A stretch of DNA of 32,000 nucleotides from Fibrobacter succinogenes subsp. succinogenes S85. Lineage in GTDB: Bacteria; Fibrobacterota; Fibrobacteria; Fibrobacterales; Fibrobacteraceae. Where the stretch lies: assembly GCF_000146505.1 (NCBI RefSeq), contig NC_017448.1, forward strand, positions 2,790,001-2,822,000. The letters are read 5' to 3'. Below are positions 3,013-31,893 of the stretch, one piece after another; the first letter of the stretch is position 1, and every line of letters begins with the position of its first letter. Made by a program: the position numbers and the translations under genes. The notes beneath the pieces are model-generated. The model saw only the letters and a list, made by a program, of their open reading frames with translations, had not been told where the DNA came from and made no database searches.

Positions 3013-4256
3013 GTTCCGGCCGTTTTGTGGATAAACCCCTGAAAATTGACTGGGTCTTTATTGGTGTTACGCTCACGCTGATGACGTGTGGCGTGTTGCT
3101 TGTGTATTCGGCGACGGTCAATGAGGAAATTGCCTTTTACGATACGCACTGGTTTAGGCAGATTATCTATTTCTTGATGGGGATCGCGATTGCGGTGGGA
3201 CTTGTGTTCGTGAAGATTGACTGGCTTAAGCGTGCTGCGGTGCCGTCTTACGTGATTGCGCTTTTGATGCTCGTGTTTGTGCTCATTTTTGCGGGCGACG
3301 TGAAGGGGGCCGGGCGCTGGATTGACCTGAAGGTAATTAAGTTGCAGCCCTCGGAGTTTGCAAAGATTGCGTACCTGATTACGATTTCGTACTGGCTTTC
3401 GAAACATCCCGTGAGCTTGTATAAGCTTAAGTCGTTCCTGGTGCCTTTAGGCCTTTTCATTGTGCCGTTCTTGCTTGTGCTGAAACAGCCGGATCTGAGT
3501 ACGGCGCTTGTGTTTACTGCTGTGACGCTTGTCGGGTTCTTTTTTGCGGGGCTCACGTTTACGGATTTGTTCCTGATTGTGAGTCCGGCTTTGTCAGTAC
3601 TGTTTTCGCATTCGCAGTCCATGCAGATTCCTGTCTTGTGGGGTGCGCAGATTTGCCTTGTCGTATTCTCCGTATTGCGTAGACACTTGTCCAAGAAGCT
3701 CACGGGTGTGATTATTGCGACGAACATCTTGGCAGGTTACGCCAGCACGATGGTGTGGAATATGCTGGAACCGCACCAGCAAAAACGCGTGAACACGTTT
3801 TTGGATCCGATGAGTGACCCGCTGGGCGATGGCTATCAGGTGTTACAGTCAATCACTGCGATTGGTAGTGGTGGCATTGGAGGCAAGGGATTTGGAAACG
3901 GTTCGCAGACGAATCTCTCGTTTTTGCCCGAAGAACATACGGACTTTATCTTTAGCGTGCTTGGAGAACAGTTTGGCTTTGTCGGGTGCGCGGTGATTCT
4001 TGTGCTGTTTACTTTGTTCTTGTGGAGGGCCTCCTCGATTTGCAAGACGAACGATGACCCGTTTGTGACGCTTGTGACAATGGGCGCTGCGACAATCTTT
4101 TTGTTCCACATCACGGTGAATATCGCGATGACGATTGGGCTTATGCCGGTGACGGGGCTCCCGCTGCCGTTCCTTTCTTATGGAGGCTCGTTTGCGCTTG
4201 TGTGCTTGTTCCTCGTGGGGCTCTTGATGTGCCTCAGGTATCAGGGGAATAAGTGA
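3009..4256 (+). CDS. rodA: SEDS-family peptidoglycan polymerase RodA
   Basis: Polytopic membrane protein with SEDS hallmarks QPSEFAKIAY, PEEHTDFIFSVLGEQFGF and GLPLPFLSYGGS. ATGA overlap with the mrdA stop. Confidence 0.93.
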   Translation: MSSGRFVDKPLKIDWVFIGVTLTLMTCGVLLVYSATVNEEIAFYDTHWFRQIIYFLMGIAIAVGLVFVKIDWLKRAAVPSYVIALLMLVFVLIFAGDVKGAGRWIDLKVIKLQPSEFAKIAYLITISYWLSKHPVSLYKLKSFLVPLGLFIVPFLLVLKQPDLSTALVFTAVTLVGFFFAGLTFTDLFLIVSPALSVLFSHSQSMQIPVLWGAQICLVVFSVLRRHLSKKLTGVIIATNILAGYASTMVWNMLEPHQQKRVNTFLDPMSDPLGDGYQVLQSITAIGSGGIGGKGFGNGSQTNLSFLPEEHTDFIFSVLGEQFGFVGCAVILVLFTLFLWRASSICKTNDDPFVTLVTMGAATIFLFHITVNIAMTIGLMPVTGLPLPFLSYGGSFALVCLFLVGLLMCLRYQGNK

Positions 4257-4257
4257 T

Positions 4258-4470
4258 TAGTAGACTGTAGACAGTAGGAAGTAGACGGTAGGAAGTAGGA
4301 AGGGGACGCCGCTATGCGGCTATAGACGAGAGAACGGCTCTATGAGCCTACAGACGAAAGACGAGAAAATGGCCGAAAGCGCCCAAAGCGAAGCGACCCC
4401 ATAGCCCAGAGCGTAGCGTGCTCGGAGCGAGTTTACGAGCGTCCCCATAGCTTACAGCCTTACTTCGAAG
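4258..4470 (+). repeat. Heptanucleotide-phased intergenic array with embedded 5-bp/triloop hairpins
   Basis: TAG occurs every 7 nt at 4261, 4268, 4275, 4282, 4289 and 4296 (TAGACTG TAGACAG TAGGAAG TAGACGG TAGGAAG TAGGAAG). The register continues in degenerate form (AGACGAG 4324, AGAACGG 4331, AGACGAA 4352, AGACGAG 4359, AGCGAAG 4387, AGAGCGT 4408). Hairpins: GCCGC-TAT-GCGGC at 4308-4320 and GGCTC-TAT-GAGCC at 4336-4348. Confidence 0.85.
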
Positions 4471-4580
4471 CGTGTTGATAAAATTTTACCGTACAATTAG
4501 CCTGAAAAAAGCGTGTTATAGAGATAGGGGGCTTTCGCCCTTGGGGCGTGATTTTGCGCTGCTTTATGACTGGAGGCTTT

Positions 4581-5291
4581 ATGGGCGTTTTGAGGACGGT
4601 TGCAAATTTTGTTTTCGGGATGGAGTGCCTTGCGTGCGGGAACTCGTCAGAGAGGCTTGACCCGTGGCTCTGCCCTGCTTGTGCGGCGGAACTTTTGCGG
4701 GAATCCTGCTCTTCAAAATTCCCGAACGACGATACATTTTGTTTGTTCCCGATGCGGCCTTTGACACGAAAGCTTGTGCATGCGCTCAAGTACAGGAACA
4801 TTCCGGGGCTTGCCTCTTACCTTGTGCGACATTCTTCGGCAGTGAAGCATGGGGTGGTGGCGCAGGAACTTTCGATGCTTGCGCAGCCGCTTTACTTTGT
4901 GCCTGTGCCGCTCCATCGGGCGAGGTATCGTGAGCGCGGGTACAACCAGGCGGAACTCTTGGCGGCGGCGCTTGCGACTGCAACAGGAGGTAAGGTTTGC
5001 CGCTTGCTCAAGCGCAAGACGTTTGTGGTTTCGCAGACAAAGCTTTCAAAGGAGGAGCGAGAGATGAACGTGGCGGGGGCATTTGTGGCGGATTTCCCGA
5101 GGAAGATGCCTACGCGGGGGTGTGTTGTCGTGGTGGACGATGTTTTTACGACGGGGGCGACGACTTCGGCGTGCATGGCGGCGTTTGGACCAGATTTTCC
5201 GCTCCCCTTGAAGGTGTGTACGCTGATTTACGACGAACCTGCGACGGCTGTAGCGGATTTTGCCGCCGATTGCCGCGCCTTTTACAAATAA
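4581..5291 (+). CDS. comF: ComF-family protein (phosphoribosyltransferase-like, N-terminal zinc ribbon)
   Basis: CxxC...CxxC pairs (ECLACGN, LCPACAAE) and PRTase motif VVVVDDVFTTGATTSA. Start chosen at ATG 4581, with GGAGG 4 nt upstream. The ORF track starts at GTG 4548. Confidence 0.85.
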   Translation: MGVLRTVANFVFGMECLACGNSSERLDPWLCPACAAELLRESCSSKFPNDDTFCLFPMRPLTRKLVHALKYRNIPGLASYLVRHSSAVKHGVVAQELSMLAQPLYFVPVPLHRARYRERGYNQAELLAAALATATGGKVCRLLKRKTFVVSQTKLSKEEREMNVAGAFVADFPRKMPTRGCVVVVDDVFTTGATTSACMAAFGPDFPLPLKVCTLIYDEPATAVADFAADCRAFYK

Positions 5292-5302
5292 CAAGTACAA
5301 AT

Positions 5303-11002: not shown

Positions 11003-11128
11003 GGTATGAGGTCGCGCTAAAGCGCTTTGAGCACGCTTCGCTTTGGGCTTACTGCTCCGAGGTTTTATCACTAACGATTATTGACTAAAGACTAACCACT
11101 GTCTACTTCCTGCTTCCAACTTCTTACT
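11003..11128. repeat. Heptanucleotide-phased intergenic array (18 heptads, NNNNACT register)
   Basis: Read in 7-nt steps from 11003, the last nine units are tatcACT aacgATT attgACT aaagACT aaccACT gtctACT tcctGCT tccaACT tcttACT. The array contains reverse-complement copies of modules seen at 4267-4305, 4381-4395 and 17108-17130. Confidence 0.85.
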
Positions 11129-11133
11129 AAACC

Positions 11134-12024
11134 ATGAATAAAATCCTTGAATTTACACATCTTGTCCGTTTGAGCCATTCGCTGTTTGCGATGCCTTTTG
11201 CCATTGGTTCCATGTGGGTTGCTGCAAACGGTTTCCGAGACATGAGCGCTTTTGAAACGGCCCGCATTATCGTGCTCATCGTGCTTTGCATGGTGACCGC
11301 CCGTAACAGTGCCATGAGCTTTAACCGCATTGCAGACGCCAAGTTCGATGCGGAGAATCCGCGGACGGCAAAGCGCCATTTGCCGGCAGGACGCCTGAGC
11401 CGTAAATCGGTGATGGCGTTCTTGGCGTTGAACGGAATCTTGTTTGTTGTGTTTGCGTGGATGCTCCAGCCGCTTGCAGGGGCGCTTGCGTTCCCGGTAT
11501 GGCTATTGTTGCTCTCGTATTCGTACTGGAAGCGTTTTAGCTGGCTTTGCCATTGGTTCCTTGGTTTTGCGATTGGCATGAGCCCGCTTGGCGCCTGGAT
11601 TGCCGTTCGTGGCGAATTTGCCGTGTTCCCGATTTTCCTTCTGTTCATTTTGATGCTCTGGATGGGCGGTTTTGACATCATTTACGCCACGCAGGATATT
11701 GAAATTGACCGCAAACAGGGCTTGCATTCCGTGCCCGCCCGCTTTGGCCTTGAAAAGTCCTTGCGCATTGCGCTGGCAAGCCATTTGGCAATGCTCGTGC
11801 TTTGCGTCGTGTTCGGGTTCTTCTGGAATATGGGCTGGATTTGGTGGGCGATAACGGGACTCATGACCGCTGCTATCGTCTATATTCACTTGTTCAGAAA
11901 ATCGAATGACCTAGATGCGATGAACCGCGACTTTTTCCTTGCGAATGTGGCAATTAGCGCTCTCGTGATGATAGGCCTCATCGTCTGGATTTGCATGGGA
12001 GGTGATGTCAATGAACTTTATTAA
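11134..12024 (+). CDS. UbiA-family aromatic polyprenyltransferase (4-hydroxybenzoate polyprenyltransferase-like / MqnP-like)
   Basis: Polytopic membrane protein with the two Asp-rich motifs NRIADAKFDAENPRT and YATQDIEIDRKQG. Confidence 0.88.
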   Translation: MNKILEFTHLVRLSHSLFAMPFAIGSMWVAANGFRDMSAFETARIIVLIVLCMVTARNSAMSFNRIADAKFDAENPRTAKRHLPAGRLSRKSVMAFLALNGILFVVFAWMLQPLAGALAFPVWLLLLSYSYWKRFSWLCHWFLGFAIGMSPLGAWIAVRGEFAVFPIFLLFILMLWMGGFDIIYATQDIEIDRKQGLHSVPARFGLEKSLRIALASHLAMLVLCVVFGFFWNMGWIWWAITGLMTAAIVYIHLFRKSNDLDAMNRDFFLANVAISALVMIGLIVWICMGGDVNELY

Positions 12025-12327: not shown

Positions 12328-15300
12328 TTATTGCTTTATGCAACGGATGGGTAGTCCATCAGTTTTGTCGTACAAGCGCCAGTTATTAGGGACGTAGGAG
12401 TCGCTTTTATCATTAAATATTAGCGCAACTGCGGTTGTGTCACGCGAATAGTATTTTTCTTGAATTGCGGTCCAATAGGCCGTGTTGTTTGTAGAGTACT
12501 TTATTTTATCGCGTTCTTCGGTATAGTCAATTCCGTTCCTGAAGAAGACGTTCATATAGCCTGTCGGGATGGATGAAAATCCGCAAACGTCTGTATGGGT
12601 TTCGTCGTAACCCGTGGCGTTCTTCTGGAGGTCCTCAACGTTGCACTGGGTCAAAAGTGAGTCCCAGTCTCTGCGGGTCGGGAGTCTCCATCCTTTAGGA
12701 CAAATTCCCTGAACTGAAGAGGTGTCTGCAATTACAATGGAATCGGGATGAGGATTTTTCGGAAGACCGATGGCCATATCCCAACTGTAAAGGCGTCCGT
12801 ATGTGGCACAGCCATTGTCATTATCGCCGCACCAGCTACCTGCGACTTCAAACTTTAGGTTTTCGGCCATCCATTCCTGATTGCCAATCTTGATGGTTTT
12901 ATAGCTGTTGCCGTCTCTAGAGTCCGTTATGGTAACGTAGTCTACAGGCGCTCTTCTCCAGTTCTCGTCGTAGCATTCCATGTGAAGCCCGTTGTACACG
13001 GCGACTTTGCCATCGTTCGCGAGCCCGCATTTGCCGAGGAACTGTGTGACCTTTGTTGCCGGGAGCCATCTGTAATAATTGTTTTTTGTGCCGCAATAAT
13101 AGGAGGAATCCTTGTAGGTGACCGTATCGCCGTCTAATGCTTTGCGGCAGACTCCGCCGAGGCTGTCAATCGGCTCCACAATGTGCCAGGAACTGAAACT
13201 TGATGCATAGGTAATCATCGTGTCGCAATAGAATAGCTTGTTGTTATAGCCTACGGTCATGCCTAATTTTTCGGGGAAGCTTTTACTACAGGTGCCGTAC
13301 ATCTCTTTGAACGTGTCGCTAATCCATCCACTGTATGACGTGTTGCACGCATAGTCTTTTCCGTTGTATTGTTTCCAGGTAAGTCCTGTGGCGTGGCAGA
13401 ATCCTAGAGCTTTGTCAATTTCATTTTCTTCGCGCCAATGGTATCTTTTGTTGGAGCCGACTCCCGTATAGGTGCAGCCGTAGTTCTTGCCGTTGTATTT
13501 GAAAAGACCTTCTTGCTTTTTAGGGCCGCATACACCAAGAGCTTTGTCCACGTCTGTATAAATTTGCCATGTCTGGTTGGCAGAACAATAGTATGACGTG
13601 TCTCTGTATACTTCAACTTGGCCTAGCAATGATGATGTGCATTTTTCTAGAACAATGTTGGCGGGGGCAATTTTCCAGGAGTGATCGGAACAATAGTAAT
13701 AGTTGTCTTTGTATTTATACGATGTTTTGTAGTCGTCTTTTTTGCAAACGCCCAAAGCGAGTTCTACGGAGTCCATTAATGTCCATCTCAAATTTTTACA
13801 GACGTACATTTTATTTGCGTATTCGGCAGTCTCGTAATCAATGCTTATTGTGCAGTTTCCAAGCGCCTGCGTGATGGTGAACTTTGTCCAGCCGGTGTCG
13901 CTACAAATGTAATCTACTGAATTTACCTGTCCAATTTTATCTTTAGTTCCCTTATAGCAGAGTCCTAAGGTTTTTTCAAGCGTGGTGAATTGGCGCCATT
14001 CTTCGTTGACGCAGCCGTACTTGACGGAATTATGCACTTTTTCGAATCCGTCCCTGTCGTCGTCGCATAAGCCGAGAACTTCGGATTTTGTGGCCTGTCT
14101 CCAAGTGGAATCGCAGATGTAGTCCCTGCCGGTGCTATCCGTTTTTAGTACTCCCTTGAGCTTGGGCGTGCAGAAACCGAATTCAGATGTGGGGTGCGTG
14201 AGCTTTTCCCATTTTGTGGGGCTCGTGCAGCCGTAAGTTATGCCGTTGAAATTCTTTGTCGTATAGAGCTTGGTGGAATCGCAGTTGCCGTAGTAATCGT
14301 AAATGTTTGTTGTGCGCCAGCTTATGGAATCGCAGATGTAGCTGTAACCGCTAGATTTTACGGTGTCGATTTTTCCGGAAATTTTGGGAGAACAGATGCC
14401 GAGGTTCTTTTCGGTTGTGGAGAGTGTTTCCCATTTCTTTGTTGCGCGGCAGGCGTATGTCGTACCCTTGTATTCAAGGGTCGTGTAGAACTTGGAAGCT
14501 TCGCAGTTACCGACAAAGTCAACCATGACGGTGCTGCGCCAGCCTGTGGAATCGCAGAAATAAGAACTGTAACTACTGCCACTCTTGAGAGAATCAATTT
14601 TCCCGTATCGGGTTGGCGTGCAGAATCCGATGGAATCTTCGCGGGTGCTAGCCTTGTTCCAGACGGAGTCCTTACAAATGTATTTCTTACCGTAGTTTAC
14701 CTTTTCTTCCCATTGTCTTTCCTTGGTACACTTGCCGATGGAATCTCGGAGGACCGCCTTGCGCCAACCTGTGGTGTCGCAGAAGTATTGCGTGGAATCG
14801 TACTTTGTCTTGACGGTTCCCATTTTGGCAATGCTGTCGGGAGTGCAAAGGCCGATGGCTGCTTCGGTTGTCGTGGGCTTACGCCATGTGGAATCATCGC
14901 AGATGTAGGTGCTGTCGTTGTTAATTACTTTTTTCCACTGGTTTGTGGCGGTACATTTACCGATGGAGTCTGTGAGGACAGCCTTACGCCAGCCGATAGA
15001 ATCGCAGATGTAGTCAATGGATTCCTTCTTGTTTTCGAATACGGCCATTTTCTTTAAGCTGTCGTTATTGCAGAGGCCGATGGATGATTCAATGTTTGTG
15101 GGCTTACGCCATGTGGAATCATCGCAAATGTAACTTTGTCCGTTCAGCTTTTGCACTTCCCATTGGTTTTTCTTGGTGCAGCTTGCATCAACGTCGTTCA
15201 TGGTTGCGTATTCCCAAGTGTTGTTTCTGCAAATGAACAACGTATCCTTGTAATAATGCTTATCGCCGCGTTCCGAAGAAAGGCAGGAGTTTTCGTCGTC

Positions 15301-16092
15301 TTTGACCCATTTCTTTTTATTGCAGTAGTAGTTTTTGCCCTTGCTTGCGACAAAGAAATCGTCAAGGTATTTGTATGTGGAAGAATCGCAAGTGGGGAGT
15401 TGGCTTTCTGTTTCAACAAAGTGCGACATCTTCATGCAACGCACGGCGTAATAGGCGCTGAAATTGGCTTCTTCAAAATACGCCTTCCCTTTGGAGGTCA
15501 CCTTAAAGACATCGAAATCGGATGTCATGAGGTAGGATTCTTTGCCTTGGCCCTTGCATTGAAGCTCTCCGTTGACGGTTTCGCAGGAACCGGACATTTG
15601 CGGGTCGAAACCGAAGGCAGGGTCGGTGACGCTTTTAGCGAATTTGAGCATGTATTCGTAATCGGCTTCGGACGGAATCTTGAACCCGCTAGGACATGCC
15701 TGGTCGGCATTCATGCTCTGGTACAGGCGACCATTGGATTCGCAGTTTTCGTAATCCCCGTCGTAACAGGAGCTTTTTGATACTTTGTAGTTTGCGTTTT
15801 CGGCCATCCATGTGTAAGGCCCGAATTGGATGGTCTTATAGGAGTTGCCACTTTTTACGTCAAGAATTTCGCTTTTGATGATGCTTGCTGTTCCGGTCTT
15901 GGAATTGTAATTGCTTCCTGTAATGGTGGAGTCTCTGAATTCGTCGCCACCGAGGTTGTCCTCTTCCTCATCTTCAATTGAGGGGTCCTCTGCGCTACTG
16001 CTGTTGTCATCGCCACAGGCGCCTAGATATAACGGTAAAACCAAACACGATGATAAAAATGCCTTTCGGAACGTAAATCGCGAAAAGTGCAT
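12328..16092 (-). CDS. Giant lipoprotein: FISUMP domain, about 22 two-Cys repeats, second FISUMP domain
   Basis: Lipobox LYLGAC. N-terminal domain GNSYKTIQFGPYTWMAEN...NGRLY...CPSGFKIPSEADYEYM...AVRCMK. C-terminal domain DSRDGNSYKTIKIGNQEWMAENL...YGRLYSW...CPKGWRLPTRRDWDSL...LPIRCIKQ (TIGR02145-type signature). AGGAGG lies 4 nt upstream of the ATG. Confidence 0.9.
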   Translation of the reverse strand: MHFSRFTFRKAFLSSCLVLPLYLGACGDDNSSSAEDPSIEDEEEDNLGGDEFRDSTITGSNYNSKTGTASIIKSEILDVKSGNSYKTIQFGPYTWMAENANYKVSKSSCYDGDYENCESNGRLYQSMNADQACPSGFKIPSEADYEYMLKFAKSVTDPAFGFDPQMSGSCETVNGELQCKGQGKESYLMTSDFDVFKVTSKGKAYFEEANFSAYYAVRCMKMSHFVETESQLPTCDSSTYKYLDDFFVASKGKNYYCNKKKWVKDDENSCLSSERGDKHYYKDTLFICRNNTWEYATMNDVDASCTKKNQWEVQKLNGQSYICDDSTWRKPTNIESSIGLCNNDSLKKMAVFENKKESIDYICDSIGWRKAVLTDSIGKCTATNQWKKVINNDSTYICDDSTWRKPTTTEAAIGLCTPDSIAKMGTVKTKYDSTQYFCDTTGWRKAVLRDSIGKCTKERQWEEKVNYGKKYICKDSVWNKASTREDSIGFCTPTRYGKIDSLKSGSSYSSYFCDSTGWRSTVMVDFVGNCEASKFYTTLEYKGTTYACRATKKWETLSTTEKNLGICSPKISGKIDTVKSSGYSYICDSISWRTTNIYDYYGNCDSTKLYTTKNFNGITYGCTSPTKWEKLTHPTSEFGFCTPKLKGVLKTDSTGRDYICDSTWRQATKSEVLGLCDDDRDGFEKVHNSVKYGCVNEEWRQFTTLEKTLGLCYKGTKDKIGQVNSVDYICSDTGWTKFTITQALGNCTISIDYETAEYANKMYVCKNLRWTLMDSVELALGVCKKDDYKTSYKYKDNYYYCSDHSWKIAPANIVLEKCTSSLLGQVEVYRDTSYYCSANQTWQIYTDVDKALGVCGPKKQEGLFKYNGKNYGCTYTGVGSNKRYHWREENEIDKALGFCHATGLTWKQYNGKDYACNTSYSGWISDTFKEMYGTCSKSFPEKLGMTVGYNNKLFYCDTMITYASSFSSWHIVEPIDSLGGVCRKALDGDTVTYKDSSYYCGTKNNYYRWLPATKVTQFLGKCGLANDGKVAVYNGLHMECYDENWRRAPVDYVTITDSRDGNSYKTIKIGNQEWMAENLKFEVAGSWCGDNDNGCATYGRLYSWDMAIGLPKNPHPDSIVIADTSSVQGICPKGWRLPTRRDWDSLLTQCNVEDLQKNATGYDETHTDVCGFSSIPTGYMNVFFRNGIDYTEERDKIKYSTNNTAYWTAIQEKYYSRDTTAVALIFNDKSDSYVPNNWRLYDKTDGLPIRCIKQ
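12952..15330 (-). repeat. Coding tandem array of about 22 units (35-45 aa each)
   Basis: Unit pattern is G-x-C...Y-x-C-x(3-5)-W...(I/L)-G-x-C. The Y-x-C...W motif was counted 22 times in the translation, from NYYCNKKKW through SYICDDSTW, DYICDSIGW and others to HMECYDENW. The first units alternate two subtypes, giving a 75-aa super-repeat. Confidence 0.85.
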
Positions 16093-17103: not shown

Positions 17104-17213
17104 TTACTTAGTCGTTAGTCAATGGTCGTTTGTTGCCTTTGACGTAATTCTATCACGATTATTCTTCTCTAGTCTTTCGTCTGTAGCCACGTAGTGGCGT
17201 TCTTTCGTCTAAC
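17104..17213. repeat. Heptanucleotide-phased intergenic array (15 heptads) including one hairpin/AGACG element
   Basis: In 7-nt steps from 17109: TAGTCGT TAGTCAA TGGTCGT TTGTTGC ... GTCTTTC GTCTGTA GCCACGT AGTGGCG TTCTTTC GTCTAAC. The register is kept across the whole spacer. Confidence 0.85.
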
Positions 17214-17639
17214 TTACTCGTCAGCTTGCTTTTCTTGGAGTTCCTTGAGTGCTTCTTCTGGGAAAATGTTGAAGAATTCCTGCTTCTTGTCCTCGAAAAG
17301 CTGCAACATGCGTTCCTGCTCAAACTGCTCGCGGTCAATGTTCTGCATAAAGAACTCGTCCTTGGCAAAGTTGCGGCTTTGGATAGTCTTCTTGATATCT
17401 TCGGACAGGTCTACGTTATCCCAAAGAATGTAGTACGAACCGACAAATCCATCTGCAAAAATGTCAACGTTCAATTTGACCGAGTTACTTTGCGTTGAAT
17501 CAACCATTTCGACTTTGGTTTCGCGCTTTTCGGGGCGGAATACGTCAACGTCGTTTACAGGTTTGGACAAATCCTGAGCCCAGCAAAATGCTGTTGCACA
17601 TAGAAAGAACATTACCTTATGCTTGAACGACAAAATCAT
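17214..17639 (-). CDS. Secreted acidic hypothetical protein (141 aa)
   Basis: Signal-peptide-like N-terminus MILSFKHKVMFFLCATAFCWAQD when started at ATG 17639. The longer ORF-track start (17795) would run through the repeat element and the tsaD stop region. Confidence 0.6.
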   Translation of the reverse strand: MILSFKHKVMFFLCATAFCWAQDLSKPVNDVDVFRPEKRETKVEMVDSTQSNSVKLNVDIFADGFVGSYYILWDNVDLSEDIKKTIQSRNFAKDEFFMQNIDREQFEQERMLQLFEDKKQEFFNIFPEEALKELQEKQADE

Positions 17640-17782
17640 ATTTACAATATACAATGAAAAATGTCGAAAAATATGGAGGATGTAAAAAAGCTTGGCTGAA
17701 AATACACCAAAAAAGCGCCATGATGGTATGTGACGTACCGATATTCTGCGAAGTGTATTATATGCGCGGATTTCTCGCCCTG

Positions 17783-17816
17783 CGTCTGTAGCCACGTAAT
17801 GGCGTTCTCTCGTCTA
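17783..17816 (-). repeat. Hairpin/AGACG element copy abutting the tsaD stop
   Basis: Minus strand reads TAGACGAGAGAAC GCCAT-TAC-GTGGC TACAGACG. The first TAG is the tsaD stop codon. Confidence 0.8.
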
Positions 17817-18821
17817 AAGAGCGAGCGGCATCCACGGCTTCACAACGTCGATAGACTCGAGCTTGCCCTGCAACTTGCGGCGGATGGCCGCTGCGGCAAT
17901 CATTGCTCCGTTGTCCGTACTCAGGCTGCGGTCCGGCACGCAGAAGCGGATACCTTTCTTATCGCAGTAGTCCTGCAAGCGGGTGCGCAACCAGCTGTTT
18001 GCACTCACGCCACCGCCCATCACGAGCGTCTTCATCTTCGTCTTCTTGAGGGCGTTGATGGTCTTTGTGACAAGGCTATCGACAATCGCGTCTTCAAGCG
18101 AGGCGCAGATATCGCCGAGGTTCTGCTGGATAAATTCCGGGTCGTGCGTTTCGGTATAACGGAGCACGGCGGTCTTTAATCCACTGAACGAAAATTCGCA
18201 GCTGTCGTGCGTGTGAAGTGCGCGTGGAAATTCCACGAATTTGCGGTTGTGGTCCTTGCCGAGGCGGCTAATCGTTGCACCTGCGGGGTACTTGAGGCCA
18301 ATGAGCTTACCGCACTTGTCGAATGCTTCGCCGGCAGCATCATCGCGGGTGCGACCGATGCTTGTGTACTTGAATCCCGGTTCTTCCATCACAAGTTCTG
18401 TGTGTCCGCCTGAGACGGTAAGCGTCAAAAATGGCGGTTCAATGTCCGGGTTAGAGAGCCAGGCAGCGGCGAGGTGGCCTTCGAGATGGTTCATGCCGTA
18501 AGCCGGAATGTTCAAATCGCGGGCGAGGCCTTTGGCAAAGCTTGCACCAACGAGGAGCGGTCCCATGAGGCCCGGGCCAGTGGTGTAGGCGATGGCGTCA
18601 ATGTCCTTGAGCTCAACGCCCGCTTCCTTGACGGCGGCTTCGGCGATGGGGGCAATCTTTTGCAAATGCGCACGGGCGGCGATTTCGGGAACAACGCCAC
18701 CGTAGAGGGCATGTTCGTCAATTTGGCTGTAAAGTGGATTCGAAAGAACTTTGAGTGGGTCGTCCTGCAAAACAGCACATGCTGTTTCGTCGCAGCTGGA
18801 TTCAATTCCAAGCCAAATCAT
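17814..18821 (-). CDS. tsaD: tRNA N6-adenosine threonylcarbamoyltransferase TsaD
   Basis: GIESSCDETA, HLEGHL, VSGGHTEL, GGGVSAN. ATGA overlap with the upstream ybbR-like gene. Confidence 0.93.
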   Translation of the reverse strand: MIWLGIESSCDETACAVLQDDPLKVLSNPLYSQIDEHALYGGVVPEIAARAHLQKIAPIAEAAVKEAGVELKDIDAIAYTTGPGLMGPLLVGASFAKGLARDLNIPAYGMNHLEGHLAAAWLSNPDIEPPFLTLTVSGGHTELVMEEPGFKYTSIGRTRDDAAGEAFDKCGKLIGLKYPAGATISRLGKDHNRKFVEFPRALHTHDSCEFSFSGLKTAVLRYTETHDPEFIQQNLGDICASLEDAIVDSLVTKTINALKKTKMKTLVMGGGVSANSWLRTRLQDYCDKKGIRFCVPDRSLSTDNGAMIAAAAIRRKLQGKLESIDVVKPWMPLAL

Positions 18822-26808: not shown

Positions 26809-27270
26809 ATGACGAATCTTTTGAAAAATAAAAAAGGCTTCGGTATCGTAGAGATCTTGGTCGCTGCAGCGGTCTTGGGTTTTATGTACATGGCCATTTT
26901 GAACATGCAAGGCGGTAACCGCGATGCTTTGTTGCGTATTCGCGGTCGTGATGGCGCTATTGAAGTGGCTCAACAGGTTTTGGATTCCCTCAAGTCTGTC
27001 GGTATAGCTGCAATCCCTTCGAAAGATGCTGAAGATACCGTTTTTGATGTGCCTGAAATCAACCGTAAATGGGCTCGTGGCCTCGGTGATTCGGCGACAG
27101 TGACGTATTCGTCGCAGGTAACTGTTTCGCCAACACAAGACTATACTTCACAGACTCCGTCGCAGTTTGAATCTATTTCGCACGTTTACGCCAAACAGGT
27201 GAAAGTCAAAGTCTCCTGGAACTTCAAAGGCTCCACGCAGTCTATAGAAGTCTCAAGTGTCATTAGATAG
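26809..27270 (+). CDS. Prepilin-type N-terminal cleavage/methylation domain protein (second pilin-like gene)
   Basis: MTNLLKNKKG|FGIVEILVAAAVLGFMYMAIL with Glu at +5. Start taken at ATG 26809, 7 nt after the preceding stop; the ORF-track start 26731 overlaps the previous gene. Confidence 0.82.
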   Translation: MTNLLKNKKGFGIVEILVAAAVLGFMYMAILNMQGGNRDALLRIRGRDGAIEVAQQVLDSLKSVGIAAIPSKDAEDTVFDVPEINRKWARGLGDSATVTYSSQVTVSPTQDYTSQTPSQFESISHVYAKQVKVKVSWNFKGSTQSIEVSSVIR

Positions 27271-27370
27271 TTAGGTATGGGGTATGGGCTCGGCACTTCG
27301 TGCCTTTGAGGTATGGGCTATTACCCCAAAGCGAAGCGACCTCATACCCCAAAGCACCGTAGGTGCGCGC
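27271..27370. repeat. Composite palindromic intergenic element built from heptad modules
   Basis: GGTATGG GGTATGG in tandem (27274-27287). Hairpins GGCAC-TTC-GTGCC (27292-27304) and GCACC-GTA-GGTGC (27354-27366). Arms 27292-27318 and 27338-27366 are inverted copies. 27323-27357 matches 4380-4414 at 28 of 35 positions, heptad for heptad. Confidence 0.75.
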
Positions 27371-28738
27371 TCATTGCCCTAAAATGTGCATAATCACGGG
27401 CCGGTTCTTGCCGGCTTCTGTTTTATGTATTGTGAGCTTGCCGGTGCTATCGTAACTGAACTGCTCGCCGACGCGTTCGCCGTTCACGTAGTTGAGGCTG
27501 TCTTTCAATATGCCGCTCGGGTACCAGTTGCGCCAGATGCCGTGGCGTTTGGATTTGTTGTCTTTTGGATCTTGTTGCCAGAACCCTTCGCTTGCCATTT
27601 TGCCACCCATGCTGTCTGGGTAGAAACTGCGGCTTGTTTGAATATGCGGTGTGCTGTGCGAGCTATCGGCGGTGCTATCCTCGCGTACCCAGAGTTCTTC
27701 GTACAAAAGAACGTGTCCTTTTTGAATGTAACGGAGTGTTGCCGGATACTTGCCTATGCTTTGTTTGAAATCGTCTTTGAGACTTAAAGTGCAAGAGTCA
27801 AGCGTTCCATTGGGTTCTGAAGAACGGACGAATAGGGTTTCTGCACAGAACAGCGTGGAAGAATTTGCGCATGTTCCGTAAGCGATGCCGGTAACTTCGG
27901 ATTTATTTGTGGAATCTTCCGCAATAAAACTGCTTTCTCGGACAATGTTGTTGTTCTCGTCGAACCACTGTATTTTTTCACGCCCCTTGAAAAAGCTTGA
28001 CTTGATTTTTTTGATGAGGGAACCGTCTGCCCTGTAGAATGTTAGAGGCAATGGAGCGAATTGACTTTGTATAACCCCCTCTTCCATGATTTGCGCTTGT
28101 TCGCAATTTCCGGCGGCAGAATCAACGGGTCCGTATGATTCGTAGTATTTTTTGTAATTGCCTTCTAAATAGCCGTTCACGCAATCGTAGTATTCCGTGA
28201 TTTTGCAGTTTCTCCCAAAACGCTTGACATATCCGTTGGCTTCATGGCATCTATTTTCTTCGGCAAGTACTCCGTTGTCGTGAAAATGTTTCCACACTCC
28301 GATGTGGTTCCCGTTGTCGTCGTAATGCCTTTCAATTGCTTTTACCCCATTGTGGTGCCATCCTTCCCAGTCGCCAACAGGGTGGTCATCCTTGTAATAC
28401 TGGACCGCTTCAACTTTCTTGTTCTGGTAGTAGACCGTCCACTTGCCGTCTTTTTTCCCTTTGTTGTAGCGTCCGATCATCGCGACATCGCCAAAGCCTG
28501 TCCAACGTTTGAATTCACCATGCGGGAGGCTGTCTTCGTAAGGAATTTCGAGTTCCTTGATGCCGTCGTTGTACCATTCGTTACGCTTGAGGATGGTTCC
28601 GTCAGGGTAGACCCAGATGGATGTCTTTTTGACGCCATTTGCGTGCCTTGCGAGGATATGTTCTTCAGCCCGCTCGACTGTACAGCCGGCGAAATAGCAT
28701 AAAATGGCAAAAAAGGCGATTAAATGACGGAGTCTCAT
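27371..28738 (-). CDS. Lipoprotein with MORN-variant (YwqK-like) repeats
   Basis: Lipobox at MRLRHLIAFFAILCYFAGC when started at ATG 28738. Repeats of the G-x-W-x-x-Y/W-x-x-N-G type (DGKWTVYYQNKK, VGDWEGWHHNGV, IGVWKHFHDNGV, HGIWRNWYPSGI). Confidence 0.8.
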   Translation of the reverse strand: MRLRHLIAFFAILCYFAGCTVERAEEHILARHANGVKKTSIWVYPDGTILKRNEWYNDGIKELEIPYEDSLPHGEFKRWTGFGDVAMIGRYNKGKKDGKWTVYYQNKKVEAVQYYKDDHPVGDWEGWHHNGVKAIERHYDDNGNHIGVWKHFHDNGVLAEENRCHEANGYVKRFGRNCKITEYYDCVNGYLEGNYKKYYESYGPVDSAAGNCEQAQIMEEGVIQSQFAPLPLTFYRADGSLIKKIKSSFFKGREKIQWFDENNNIVRESSFIAEDSTNKSEVTGIAYGTCANSSTLFCAETLFVRSSEPNGTLDSCTLSLKDDFKQSIGKYPATLRYIQKGHVLLYEELWVREDSTADSSHSTPHIQTSRSFYPDSMGGKMASEGFWQQDPKDNKSKRHGIWRNWYPSGILKDSLNYVNGERVGEQFSYDSTGKLTIHKTEAGKNRPVIMHILGQ

Positions 28739-28814
28739 TGTTCGTAAAGTAGAAAAAAAGTAATTTCTAGATGTGAACGGACAGACGAAAAAATCAATTG
28801 CAGAAACTTTGCAC

Positions 28815-31715: not shown

Positions 31716-31844
31716 ACGTTGCTATAGTCCAAGACTATCGCTCCTTTTGTCTCAAGTCTAGCGATGGGGCGTTGCGGGGTGTCCCCGCTCGAAGGGGTGA
31801 TGGAAGACCCGGCGAGCCGGGGCTGCAATCAGGGGGAGTCTTCC

Positions 31845-31893
31845 CCCCACTTCCTACCGCCTACTTCCTACTGTCTACTTTGGTTACCTCAGT
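31845..31893. repeat. Heptanucleotide-phased array (NNNNACT register), inverted copy of 4267-4305
   Basis: ccccACT tcctACC gcctACT tcctACT gtctACT ttggtta cctcAGT. The reverse complement of 31845-31878 matches 4267-4305 at 33 of 34 aligned positions, apart from one missing TAGGAAG-type unit. Confidence 0.8.

Follow-up and report, generated by a model that had tools for sequence, protein, structure and literature searches.

Two kinds of intergenic repeat come closest to the element described here. Repetitive extragenic palindromic (REP) elements lie less than 20 bp from the 3' ends of open reading frames (ORFs), can supply a TAG stop codon, also occur in genes, and form sub-families that differ by complementary changes in the stem (PMC3733652); GTAG- and CGTC-tagged superfamilies of such palindromic repeats have been described by Di Nocera et al. 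2013, with published REP stems of 5–13 bp (PMC3733652). Translation is affected by REPs that lie no more than 15 nt from a stop codon (cited in PMC12306157), and REP325 stabilises the upstream mRNA and partly terminates transcription (bioRxiv 10.64898/2026.03.23.713779). The STRRs (short tandemly repeated repetitive elements) of heterocystous cyanobacteria are tandem, 7-bp, hairpin-forming intergenic repeats, for which roles in transcript stability or translational coupling have been proposed (PMC2670836). Here we describe an element in a 32,000-nt stretch of the genome of Fibrobacter succinogenes subsp. succinogenes S85 (assembly GCF_000146505.1, contig NC_017448.1, positions 2,790,001 to 2,822,000 of the forward strand; the whole stretch is called the window), in which four GC-rich mini-hairpins stand at three loci, set in purine-rich arms. 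The element most resembles E. coli REPs and the cyanobacterial STRRs with their 7-base unit, and it is a previously undescribed family of short interspersed intergenic repeats, present in at least 41 Fibrobacter-lineage genomes. What is new in it is the phasing in heptads, the anchoring to stop codons via the distal arm, the polarity, and the combination of conserved flanks with a free stem.

The family was delimited by scanning one genome per species, for 185,579 species, with the flank-only pattern AGACGARAGAAC-N(9-17)-TAYAGACG, which demands neither a stem nor a loop. Genus-wide counts given below rest on at least 120 pattern loci, and shares hold among the matches listed. Of the 120 listed loci, 117 are in Fibrobacter, Fibrobacteraceae or Fibrobacterales genomes, from at least 41 species-level assemblies, so the element is a lineage-specific family; it amounts to at least 128 copies in these genomes. 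Among the matches listed, two are chance matches, in Bacillota and Clostridia. A phage origin was considered and rejected, since 2.9 million viral contigs yielded 4 pattern matches, one of them a true copy. No description of this repeat was found in Rfam, in REP surveys or in full-text searches that included the literal flank sequences; Rfam 15 at gathering thresholds reported only 4 tRNAs in the window, and a permissive search of 4230–4560 gave only a chance miRNA match (E = 3). Locus L009 (JAEEHV010000055.1) is on a 3.5-kb contig binned as Candidatus Gastranaerophilales; its element context, an hsdS-like LLTGKKRLPGF region, is near-identical to that of Fibrobacter locus L021, and it is probably a mis-binned Fibrobacter contig.

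The copies in the window share the purine-rich frame TAGACGARAGAAC–hairpin–TAYAGACGAR(AGACGAR)n. From 5' to 3' on the strand of each copy, their parts are:

4257–4307, plus strand: array of TAG-N4 heptads read from the sequence, TTAG TAGACTG TAGACAG TAGGAAG TAGACGG TAGGAAG TAGGAAG GGGAC, directly 3' of the rodA stop codon (TGA, 4254–4256) and running into hairpin 1
4308–4320, plus strand: hairpin 1, GCCGC-TAT-GCGGC, 5 bp and a triloop; RNA fold −7.1 kcal/mol, z = −2.8
4321–4335, plus strand: linker TATAGACGAGAGAAC, shared by both hairpins, as 3' arm of the first and 5' arm of the second
4336–4348, plus strand: hairpin 2, GGCTC-TAT-GAGCC; −5.8 kcal/mol, z = −3.3
4349–4368, plus strand: 3' arm TAC AGACGAA AGACGAG AAA, made of heptad repeats
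17199–17211, minus strand: 5' arm TAGACGAAAGAAC, starting 2 nt past the TAA stop codon (17216–17214) of an ORF of 141 amino acids
17186–17198, minus strand: hairpin GCCAC-TAC-GTGGC, 15 nt past that stop codon; −5.6 kcal/mol, z = −3.2
17164–17185, minus strand: 3' arm TAC AGACGAA AGACTAG AGAAG
17804–17816, minus strand: 5' arm TAGACGAGAGAAC, whose TAG (17816–17814) is the tsaD stop codon
17791–17803, minus strand: hairpin GCCAT-TAC-GTGGC with a U·G closing pair, 10 nt past the tsaD stop codon; −4.3 kcal/mol
17769–17790, minus strand: degenerate 3' arm TACAGACGCAGGGCGAGAAATC, with a conserved TATAAT box directly after it

The coordinates and sequences given in the original prediction, which had been made from the letters of the window, are correct, hairpins and flanks included; the stem at 17803–17791 has one U·G wobble. 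The left flank of hairpin 1 is the GTAG array and not an AGACG arm; Tandem Repeats Finder (TRF) reports the array as one of period 21 (3 × 7) at 4259–4302. The head-to-tail tandem of two hairpins at 4308–4365 is the only such double in about 125 loci among the matches listed. The gene tsaD was identified by its Pfam TsaD match (E = 1e-90) and rodA at E = 3e-93; the 141-residue ORF encodes a secreted protein. A covariance model was built from the copies of other genomes and the three window copies, which therefore match it partly by construction: 4320–4370 (the hairpin 2 copy) scores 70.5 bits, 17164–17214 70.1 bits and 17769–17819 53.2 bits, with E-values between 1e-16 and 4e-12. A segment at 28775–28790, earlier read as the same flanks with the hairpin absent, reaches 5.5 bits (E = 3.6) in this model and is without the other features, and we do not retain it as a copy.

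Allowing at most one mismatch, AGACGARAGA occurs 14 times in the window, against 3.8 ± 2.0 times in dinucleotide-preserving shuffles, and 0/100 shuffles reached 14. The isolated 13-mers fold at −4.3 to −7.1 kcal/mol with z about −3. Larger element regions fold no better than shuffles (z = −0.25 to −1.2), indicating that the structure is the mini-hairpin alone. Hairpins this short, in regions that fold like their shuffles, are what chance similarity or low-complexity purine-rich sequence would give without there being any family; the 14 motif matches against 3.8, E-values of 1e-16 and at least 128 copies, 77% of them with a perfect hairpin against 0.9% expected, bring the probability of that explanation down to practically nil, and it is refuted. 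The recurrence of a structured unit beyond chance, which had been proposed from the window, stands.

Constraint on the hairpin is evident from the inserts between the flanks. A perfect terminal stem (4 bp or more, closing a loop of no more than 5 nt) is present in 98/128 inserts (77%), compared with 0.9% of random 13-mers of the same composition, again among the matches listed, and in none of five chance flank matches outside Fibrobacter, viral ones included. The commonest form has 5 bp and a T-N-Y triloop; stems of 4–7 bp and loops of 3–5 nt also occur. About 10% of copies carry a recurrent non-hairpin insert, GCTCGY-AA-RCTCGC. In an alignment (A1) of 73 non-identical copies with a 13-nt insert, standard pairs fill 98.1% of the stem cells, against 71.4 ± 1.6% with shuffled partners. 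Both sides have changed in 85 cells where 22.5 ± 4.5 were expected, a value as high being reached in 0/500 shuffles, and sliding the 3' partner column by 1–3 positions makes pairing fall to 26–51%. The compensatory stem changes noticed between the window copies (C:G or G:C at stem position 2; G:C, T:A or A:T at position 4) are thus a property of the whole alignment.

Not all stem positions are alike. The outer pair is G-C in 72/73 copies and the loop-closing pair C-G in 71/73, with the three inner pairs varying freely among CG, GC, AU and UA to give 16 different 5' arms. Triloops are T-N-Y in 73/79 cases, 59 of these being T-N-C, and G-N-A was never seen on the sense strand. The 3' arm beyond the search pattern, ARAGACGARAGA, has a mean identity of 81% across at least 41 species-level genomes, against 30% in the innermost varying stem columns; flanks are therefore more conserved than the stem, as the prediction had held for flanks and loop together. 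The hairpin is under structural constraint, its pairing being kept while the stem sequence is free. G·U pairs make up 3/365 stem cells (0.8%), compared with 9.1% of pairs in 127 terminator-like hairpins from the same loci, a figure biased upward by a search that allowed G·U. Their near-absence weakens a purely RNA-level reading of the element.

The position of the element relative to genes was analysed in two ways, by a caller-independent stop-to-stop ORF test and by a gene caller scored on codon usage. In the stop-to-stop test, a sense ORF of at least 100 codons ends within 200 nt upstream of 91/130 matches; in 33 of those 91 (about a third) the element's own TAG serves as the stop codon, and in 69 the stop lies at most 8 nt away. 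Stops on the antisense side do not cluster, and the nearest is 18 nt away. The spacer from stop codon to hairpin measures 10 nt in 33 copies, 14–15 nt in 25 and 16–17 nt in 7. Where both neighbours of an intergenic copy were called, 70/87 copies follow a same-strand gene, and 65/83 intergenic copies after a same-strand gene are at most 5 nt from its stop codon. Of the copies between co-directional genes, 47 are sense and 9 antisense (p = 2.6e-7); convergent gene pairs enclose a further 23 copies and divergent pairs 8. The claim that copies are always in sense orientation 3' of a coding sequence holds for the window; genus-wide it becomes a bias of about 84% (47/56 in co-directional regions).

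The heptads are polar as well. Within 70 nt after stop codons, the heptad motif occurs 90 times in sense and 4 times in antisense, and before start codons 32 times in antisense and 17 times in sense, so that the arrays tend to point from the gene boundaries into the intergenic region. GC skew keeps one sign throughout the window and copies lie on both strands; orientation therefore tracks genes, not replication. An orientation linked to replication, as in insertion of the IS200/IS605 type, was rejected on these grounds and on the 90:4 sense ratio of the motif at gene 3' ends. The stop codons of the 708 genes called in loci L001–L120 and the window, a sample biased towards element-carrying loci, are TAG in 237 (33%), TAA in 347 and TGA in 124; the TAG share is unusually high for bacteria and stems in part from repeats that supply TAG.

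A GC-rich hairpin just downstream of a coding sequence could be an intrinsic terminator of the upstream gene, ordinary or variant. In this element, however, the sense strand runs on as TAYAGACGARAGA without a U-tract, and terminator scans of the window found no sense-strand terminator-like site overlapping the elements. Canonical terminators, in which a hairpin with a longer stem is followed by a T-tract, often come after the element in the same intergenic region (L005, L008, L086, L099, L107, L112); the element thus lies between stop codon and terminator and is not the terminator. The tsaD copy of the window is followed by the conserved TATAAT box of the next gene, about 115 nt upstream of its start codon, and the other copy by a co-directional gene. 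Termination on the sense strand has scarcely any probability left and is refuted, in line with the earlier remark that the missing U-tract sets these hairpins apart from classical terminators.

Across the family, the layout consists of an outer TA, the 12-nt purine arm AGACGARAGAAC, the GC mini-hairpin of 11–17 nt, TAY and one to five AGACGAR heptads. A T precedes the first AGACG (making TAG) at the outer boundary in 89% of copies, and internal units have A or G at this place. The 28-nt unit described earlier is real as a tandem, a 15-nt linker plus a 13-nt hairpin, but it is not the basic entity: 28 nt correspond to four 7-nt registers in AGACGAR arrays, and single hairpins are the rule. Heptads extend well beyond the element. 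Periods of 7, 14 or 21 account for 210 of about 280 intergenic TRF arrays (~75%; score of at least 30, in 134 kb from L001–L120 and the window), and 154 of the 210 are not of the AGACGA type; other units are TAGGNNN, GTAGGAA/GTAGACR, TAGAACT, TTCGGAA and GGTATGG. Intergenic DNA of Fibrobacter is largely built from 7-nt repeats. TAG-N4 arrays (GTAGGAA, GTAGACA, GTAGACG and the like) are present in the window at 4257–4307 (plus strand), 11091–11130 (minus) and 31835–31880 (minus), and a TAG every 7 nt places a stop in all three frames. The array at 11091–11130 adjoins the start codon of the gene at 11134, antisense to it; together with the array at the rodA stop codon, it shows arrays pointing inward from both kinds of gene boundary.

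How these sequences turn over can be seen at the tsaD junction, for which a metagenome scan with TsaD gave 80 orthologous loci with 89–100% amino-acid identity. The tsaD stop codon is at the same position in all 80, and what follows it differs even among strains about 94–95% identical in DNA. The junction is empty in L121 (TAACGCAAGAATCA, then the TATAAT box), L124 and L126; it holds the element in the window, L128, L129, L143, L194, L195, L136, L140 and L200; a different hairpin, GCCCGC-CACG-GCGGGC, in L122, L123 and L127; TAGG heptads in L133, L135, L193, L199 and L141; and GTAG heptads in L125, L130 and L144. At the hairpin site itself, L128, L129 and L143 read GCCAC-TAC-GTGGC where the window reads GCCAT-TAC-GTGGC. 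L126 and L128 differ by a 35-nt (5 × 7) block bounded by the direct repeat ACGAGA. The element is gained and lost between close strains in blocks of multiples of 7 nt. Likewise, downstream of the 141-residue ORF, the distance to the biotin-ligase gene can be as little as 2 nt (TAG GG ATG) or exceed 100 nt, filled with heptads and hairpins. Different species may have different hairpins between conserved flanks at orthologous sites (L052/L066 against L093), and within some genomes one stem type dominates, for example GGCAC-TAC-GTGCC in UBA1765. The gene order downstream of tsaD varies among relatives (L122, L123, L127, L134, L137–L139, L148–L192), and in several lineages the post-stop repeats at the tsaD loci are at the synteny breakpoint.

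Some copies are part of larger composites. An inverted (YTCGTCT)n array lies within 230 nt of 34/128 copies, in co-directional and convergent regions alike. In 24/34 of these the outer ends read TAGACG...CGTCTA; the interiors, 95–264 nt long, are unrelated and often include the host terminator. When the inverted array lies no more than 120 nt away, the composite folds as a long nested hairpin with −35 to −70 kcal/mol. The antisense copies that adjoin start codons appear to be distal halves of such inverted composites. In L037, L049, L096, L113, L081 and L100, the AGACGA units of the inverted partner arrays are separated by other inserts, CCGCTTCGCTGG and GCTTCGCTTCCGGCTTCGC among them, so the hairpin slot of a heptad array can take inserts of several kinds.

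On the antisense strand, the terminator scan flagged the 17186–17198 hairpin, with a weak T/C-rich tail, GTTCTTTCGT. The element might be a polar transcription insulator, at which antisense transcription would be stopped, intrinsically or by Rho, before it enters the gene 3' end. Sense RNA is purine-rich and C-poor, and the antisense RNA would be C-rich and G-poor, with a G-N-A loop and a U/C-rich tail, GUUCUYUCGUCU: the antisense heptad CTCGTCT has C at three of seven positions and G at one, and the T-N-C loops of 59/79 triloops read G-N-A on that strand. The location at gene 3' ends and the sense bias would also fit. The hairpin is weak for such a task, at −4 to −7 kcal/mol, and its tail is broken by C and G. 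Moreover, 16 co-directional intergenic regions have an inverted array downstream of the element, some of which (L011) end a few nucleotides from the downstream start codon, where an insulator would stop the sole transcript by which that gene can be expressed. Insulation is very unlikely to be what the element is for.

Matches inside called ORFs number 23/130 (19 sense and 4 antisense), one of the sense ones being the chance match in Clostridia (L108). Three orthologous ORFs of about 440–450 amino acids (L012:880–913, L087:5234–5267 and L094:1733–1766) contain an in-frame, element-derived segment of 60 nt, RRENAR[KR]LATDERREG, within which lies the non-hairpin insert GCTCGYAARCTCGC; to either side, codons vary at their third position, which shows that the segment is translated. 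Many of the other ORF-internal copies are read-through artefacts.

The likeness to REP elements is broad. Both are short GC-rich stem-loops in high copy number, intergenic, between co-directional or convergent genes and near the 3' ends of ORFs; both can supply a TAG stop codon, have some intragenic copies and sub-families with complementary changes, and vary in presence between strains. As in REPs and in bacterial interspersed mosaic elements (BIMEs), the element forms mosaics with other short conserved motifs. As a palindromic stem-loop in at least 128 mainly intergenic copies from at least 41 genomes, 77% of them perfect hairpins, and with 70/87 after a same-strand gene and 65/83 within 5 nt of a stop codon, it agrees with the REP description. 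Both tag motifs are contained in the bottom strand, CGTCT-GTA-G(stem). The GTAG overlaps the stem by one base, so its last letter is the first base of the stem, and TAT variants (14% of 73 copies) have ATAG instead; CGTC lies 4 nt from the stem, a spacing imposed by the search pattern. The stem, of only 4–7 bp, is at the short end of REP stems, its inner pairs are hypervariable, and flanks of 12 and at least 8–20 nt are conserved and made of 7-nt tandem repeats. The stop-supplying TAG belongs to the distal arm, at 13 nt from the hairpin, rather than to a stem-adjacent GTAG tag. Units are single or head-to-tail, inverted hairpin pairs being rare, and G·T pairs, reported as frequent in GTAG REPs, are nearly absent. 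Fibrobacterota is missing from the phyla listed for REPs. BIMEs have units in alternating orientation, with conserved linker motifs between them; here the module mosaic is present, but the window hairpins are head-to-tail.

Tandem 7-bp intergenic units with hairpin potential are shared with STRRs, the heptads being the AGACGAR arms and the four registers of the 28-nt unit. The phylum and the unit sequences (AGACGAR, TAGGNNN, GTAGGAA, GGTATGG and TTCGGAA in Fibrobacter) differ, and the anchoring to stops, the polarity and the covarying mini-hairpin of the Fibrobacter arrays are not among the features reported in the accessible part of the STRR source.

Other known systems share single traits. 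Miniature inverted-repeat transposable elements (MITEs) with TA target duplication include the Correia elements of Neisseria and MITEs of the IS630/Tc1 type. Similar to these are the inverted composites with TAGACG...CGTCTA ends and the T before AGACG mainly at the outer boundary, and insertion into the TA of a TAA or TAG stop codon would regenerate TAG. However, only 34/128 copies have an inverted partner, interiors are unrelated, and most copies are one-sided, including all those of the window. Mycobacterial interspersed repetitive units (MIRUs) are sense direct repeats between operon genes that overlap the upstream stop codon and vary in copy number between strains; they are 40–100 bp long and have small ORFs for translational coupling. 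The element shares sense orientation, stop-codon overlap and strain variation with them, but its units measure 7 and 28 nt, it has no evident mini-ORF and its core is a covarying hairpin. Integron attC sites, CRISPR, recoding of the pyrrolysine insertion sequence (PYLIS) type and IS91 GTTC targets were considered and dropped, as core sites, spacing, coding continuation or partner genes seem not to fit.

Our preferred interpretation, to which we assign a probability of about 0.5, is that of a REP/BIME/MITE-like family of repeats, built on heptads, that is transcribed at the head of the 3' untranslated region (UTR), with a function that would be analogous to that of REPs. The start at the stop codon and the presence or absence at strain level, neither of them noted in the original prediction, point to a REP/MITE-like family rather than to a gene-specific RNA motif, and the match to REPs lies in the lineage-specific interspersion, a structure with free sequence, the location at ORF 3' ends, TAG supply, intragenic copies, sub-families, polymorphism and mosaic composition. 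The element may spread and turn over at the DNA level, the agent being an enzyme that recognises hairpins in single-strand DNA, or else recombination and slippage among heptad arrays. The hairpin would be needed in its DNA form, which would account for the maintenance of pairing without G·U and for the constancy of the loop and of both end pairs; these same features, with the inward geometry and the outer TA, suggest that the hairpin matters as DNA for propagation or homogenisation, a role that has been put forward for REPs with their associated tyrosine transposases (RAYTs). Copies would persist where their transcript is harmless or mildly useful, i.e., just after stop codons and with the purine-rich, C-poor strand transcribed. 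Co-transcribed as the first 45–60 nt of a 3' UTR or intercistronic RNA, the element would present a hairpin starting 10–15 nt past the stop codon, just beyond the leading edge of the terminating ribosome (judging by published toeprint distances). There, as REPs do, it could exert a mild local influence, by hindering 3'-to-5' decay of the upstream message or by keeping cistrons apart as a structured spacer, rather than terminate transcription.

Several observations speak against this interpretation. The window copies are "half" elements, without an inverted partner, a definable right end or a target duplication. No target duplication of the MITE type could be demonstrated at the filled/empty pair L126/L128 either, where the repeat is the 6-nt ACGAGA and either insertion or slippage between heptads could equally have produced the block. 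A tblastn search for RAYT and IS200 transposases, with YafM and IS200 TnpA sequences as queries, gave no match in the 1.39 Mb of fragmentary sampled loci, which is a weak test. At the 20 flank positions that the pattern prescribes, copies match exactly or are missing altogether, and the arm beyond it keeps its ~81%: essentially no decayed copies were found in 920 kb when up to 5 flank mismatches were allowed next to a perfect hairpin, and there is consequently no decay series by which to date insertions. Such invariance looks more like purifying selection or concerted evolution than like neutral selfish DNA. The strong sense bias goes beyond what insertion alone would give and needs selection. 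Finally, the role in the 3' UTR is proposed by analogy, and a hairpin of −4 to −7 kcal/mol would be a weak barrier.

Part of this evidence would suit a dedicated mark of RNA 3' ends, in which arms and hairpin bind an RNA-binding protein or the terminating ribosome and so set 3'-end stability, processing or termination efficiency for hundreds of genes, in the manner of the histone stem-loop with SLBP, of ProQ on 3' hairpins, or of HutP and TRAP, which read spaced (U/G)AG repeats. The fixed distance from stop codon to hairpin (10 nt in 33 copies and 14–15 nt in 25) would follow from it. So would pattern-fixed flanks without decayed variants, with the ~81% arm identity spanning at least 41 species-level genomes, and an orientation tied to the direction of transcription. 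A fixed loop and fixed end pairs round variable inner pairs are as predicted by recognition of shape plus edge, and the surrounding arrays offer a TAG every 7 nt. Presence in one strain and absence in a near-identical one, at the junction of the same housekeeping gene, is hard to reconcile with such a mark, as are the copies inside ORFs, the antisense copies adjoining start codons and the near-absence of G·U pairs; no Rfam family matches, and the binding protein is only hypothetical. We regard an RNA mark as possible but unlikely.

A wider version, quite unlikely in our view, is that the element is the tip of a Fibrobacter-wide, stop-anchored heptad code, in which (U/G)AG every 7 nt and a mini-hairpin of fixed format would mark the 3' ends of ORFs, to be read by a dedicated oligomeric RNA-binding or single-strand-DNA-binding protein or by the terminating ribosome. 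If true, it would be a bacterial counterpart of recognition of the histone stem-loop/SLBP or HutP/TRAP type, genome-wide rather than confined to one operon.

Beside the repeat family, the window contains further repeat modules. Two convergent genes enclose the region 27271–27370, which has two-fold symmetry: 3' of either gene, its sense strand carries in succession heptads of the GGTATGG type, a 5-bp hairpin with a T-N-C loop and TTTGRGGTATGRG. The two hairpins are:

27292–27304, plus strand: related mini-hairpin GGCAC-TTC-GTGCC, flanked by GGTATGG heptads and then TTTGAGGTATGGG; sense to the plus-strand gene ending at 27270; 10.4 bits in the covariance model, for the hairpin part only
27354–27366, minus strand: related mini-hairpin GCACC-TAC-GGTGC, then TTTGGGGTATGAGG; sense to the convergent minus-strand gene ending at 27371

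Here a second flank family surrounds hairpins of the same format. A third repeated module, CCCAAAGCGAAGCGACCYCATA, is present at 4382–4412 (plus strand), 27325–27355 (plus) and 11023–11049 (minus); it contains GCGAAGC, which we take to be the classic, very stable C-GNA-G DNA mini-hairpin. Many intergenic regions of Fibrobacter also contain GCTTCGC/GCGAAGC. At 17104–17135, directly upstream of the biotin-ligase start codon and pointing away from it, are TTAGTCG/TTAGTCA heptads (other strand: GACTAACGACTAAG), and the same module is found near 11080 (11070–11095).

Two further regions were also noted. An ORF of 1254 residues at 12328–16092 (minus strand), with internal direct-repeat families D1–D5 spaced 105–225 nt apart and unrelated to the element, probably encodes a protein with repeated domains. 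The stretch 4460–5300 (~0.85 kb), which separates the rodA intergenic region from tRNA-Ser, contains overlapping ORFs of 247 (plus strand) and 113 and 94 (minus strand) residues, for which no Pfam match and only low coding scores were obtained.

Members of Fibrobacter count among the chief degraders of cellulose in the rumen, and to our knowledge almost nothing has been described of their non-coding DNA. The element family and the surrounding heptad arrays fill a large share of the intergenic space and supply stop codons. The element lengthens or fuses predicted ORFs, as in the 23/130 copies inside called ORFs. With differences between strains ~95% identical added to stop supply and ORF fusion, gene annotation and metagenome assembly are affected. 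The same differences may provide markers for strain typing, as REP-PCR (polymerase chain reaction) and MIRU-VNTR (variable number of tandem repeats) do. For the study of intergenic repeats with a 7-nt period, Fibrobacter offers a second, independent lineage beside the cyanobacterial STRRs, and for that of hairpins a clean case in which structure and flanks are conserved and the stem sequence is free. If its polarity is functional, a poorly tractable phylum would have in this element a compact natural 3'-UTR module with which to tune expression.

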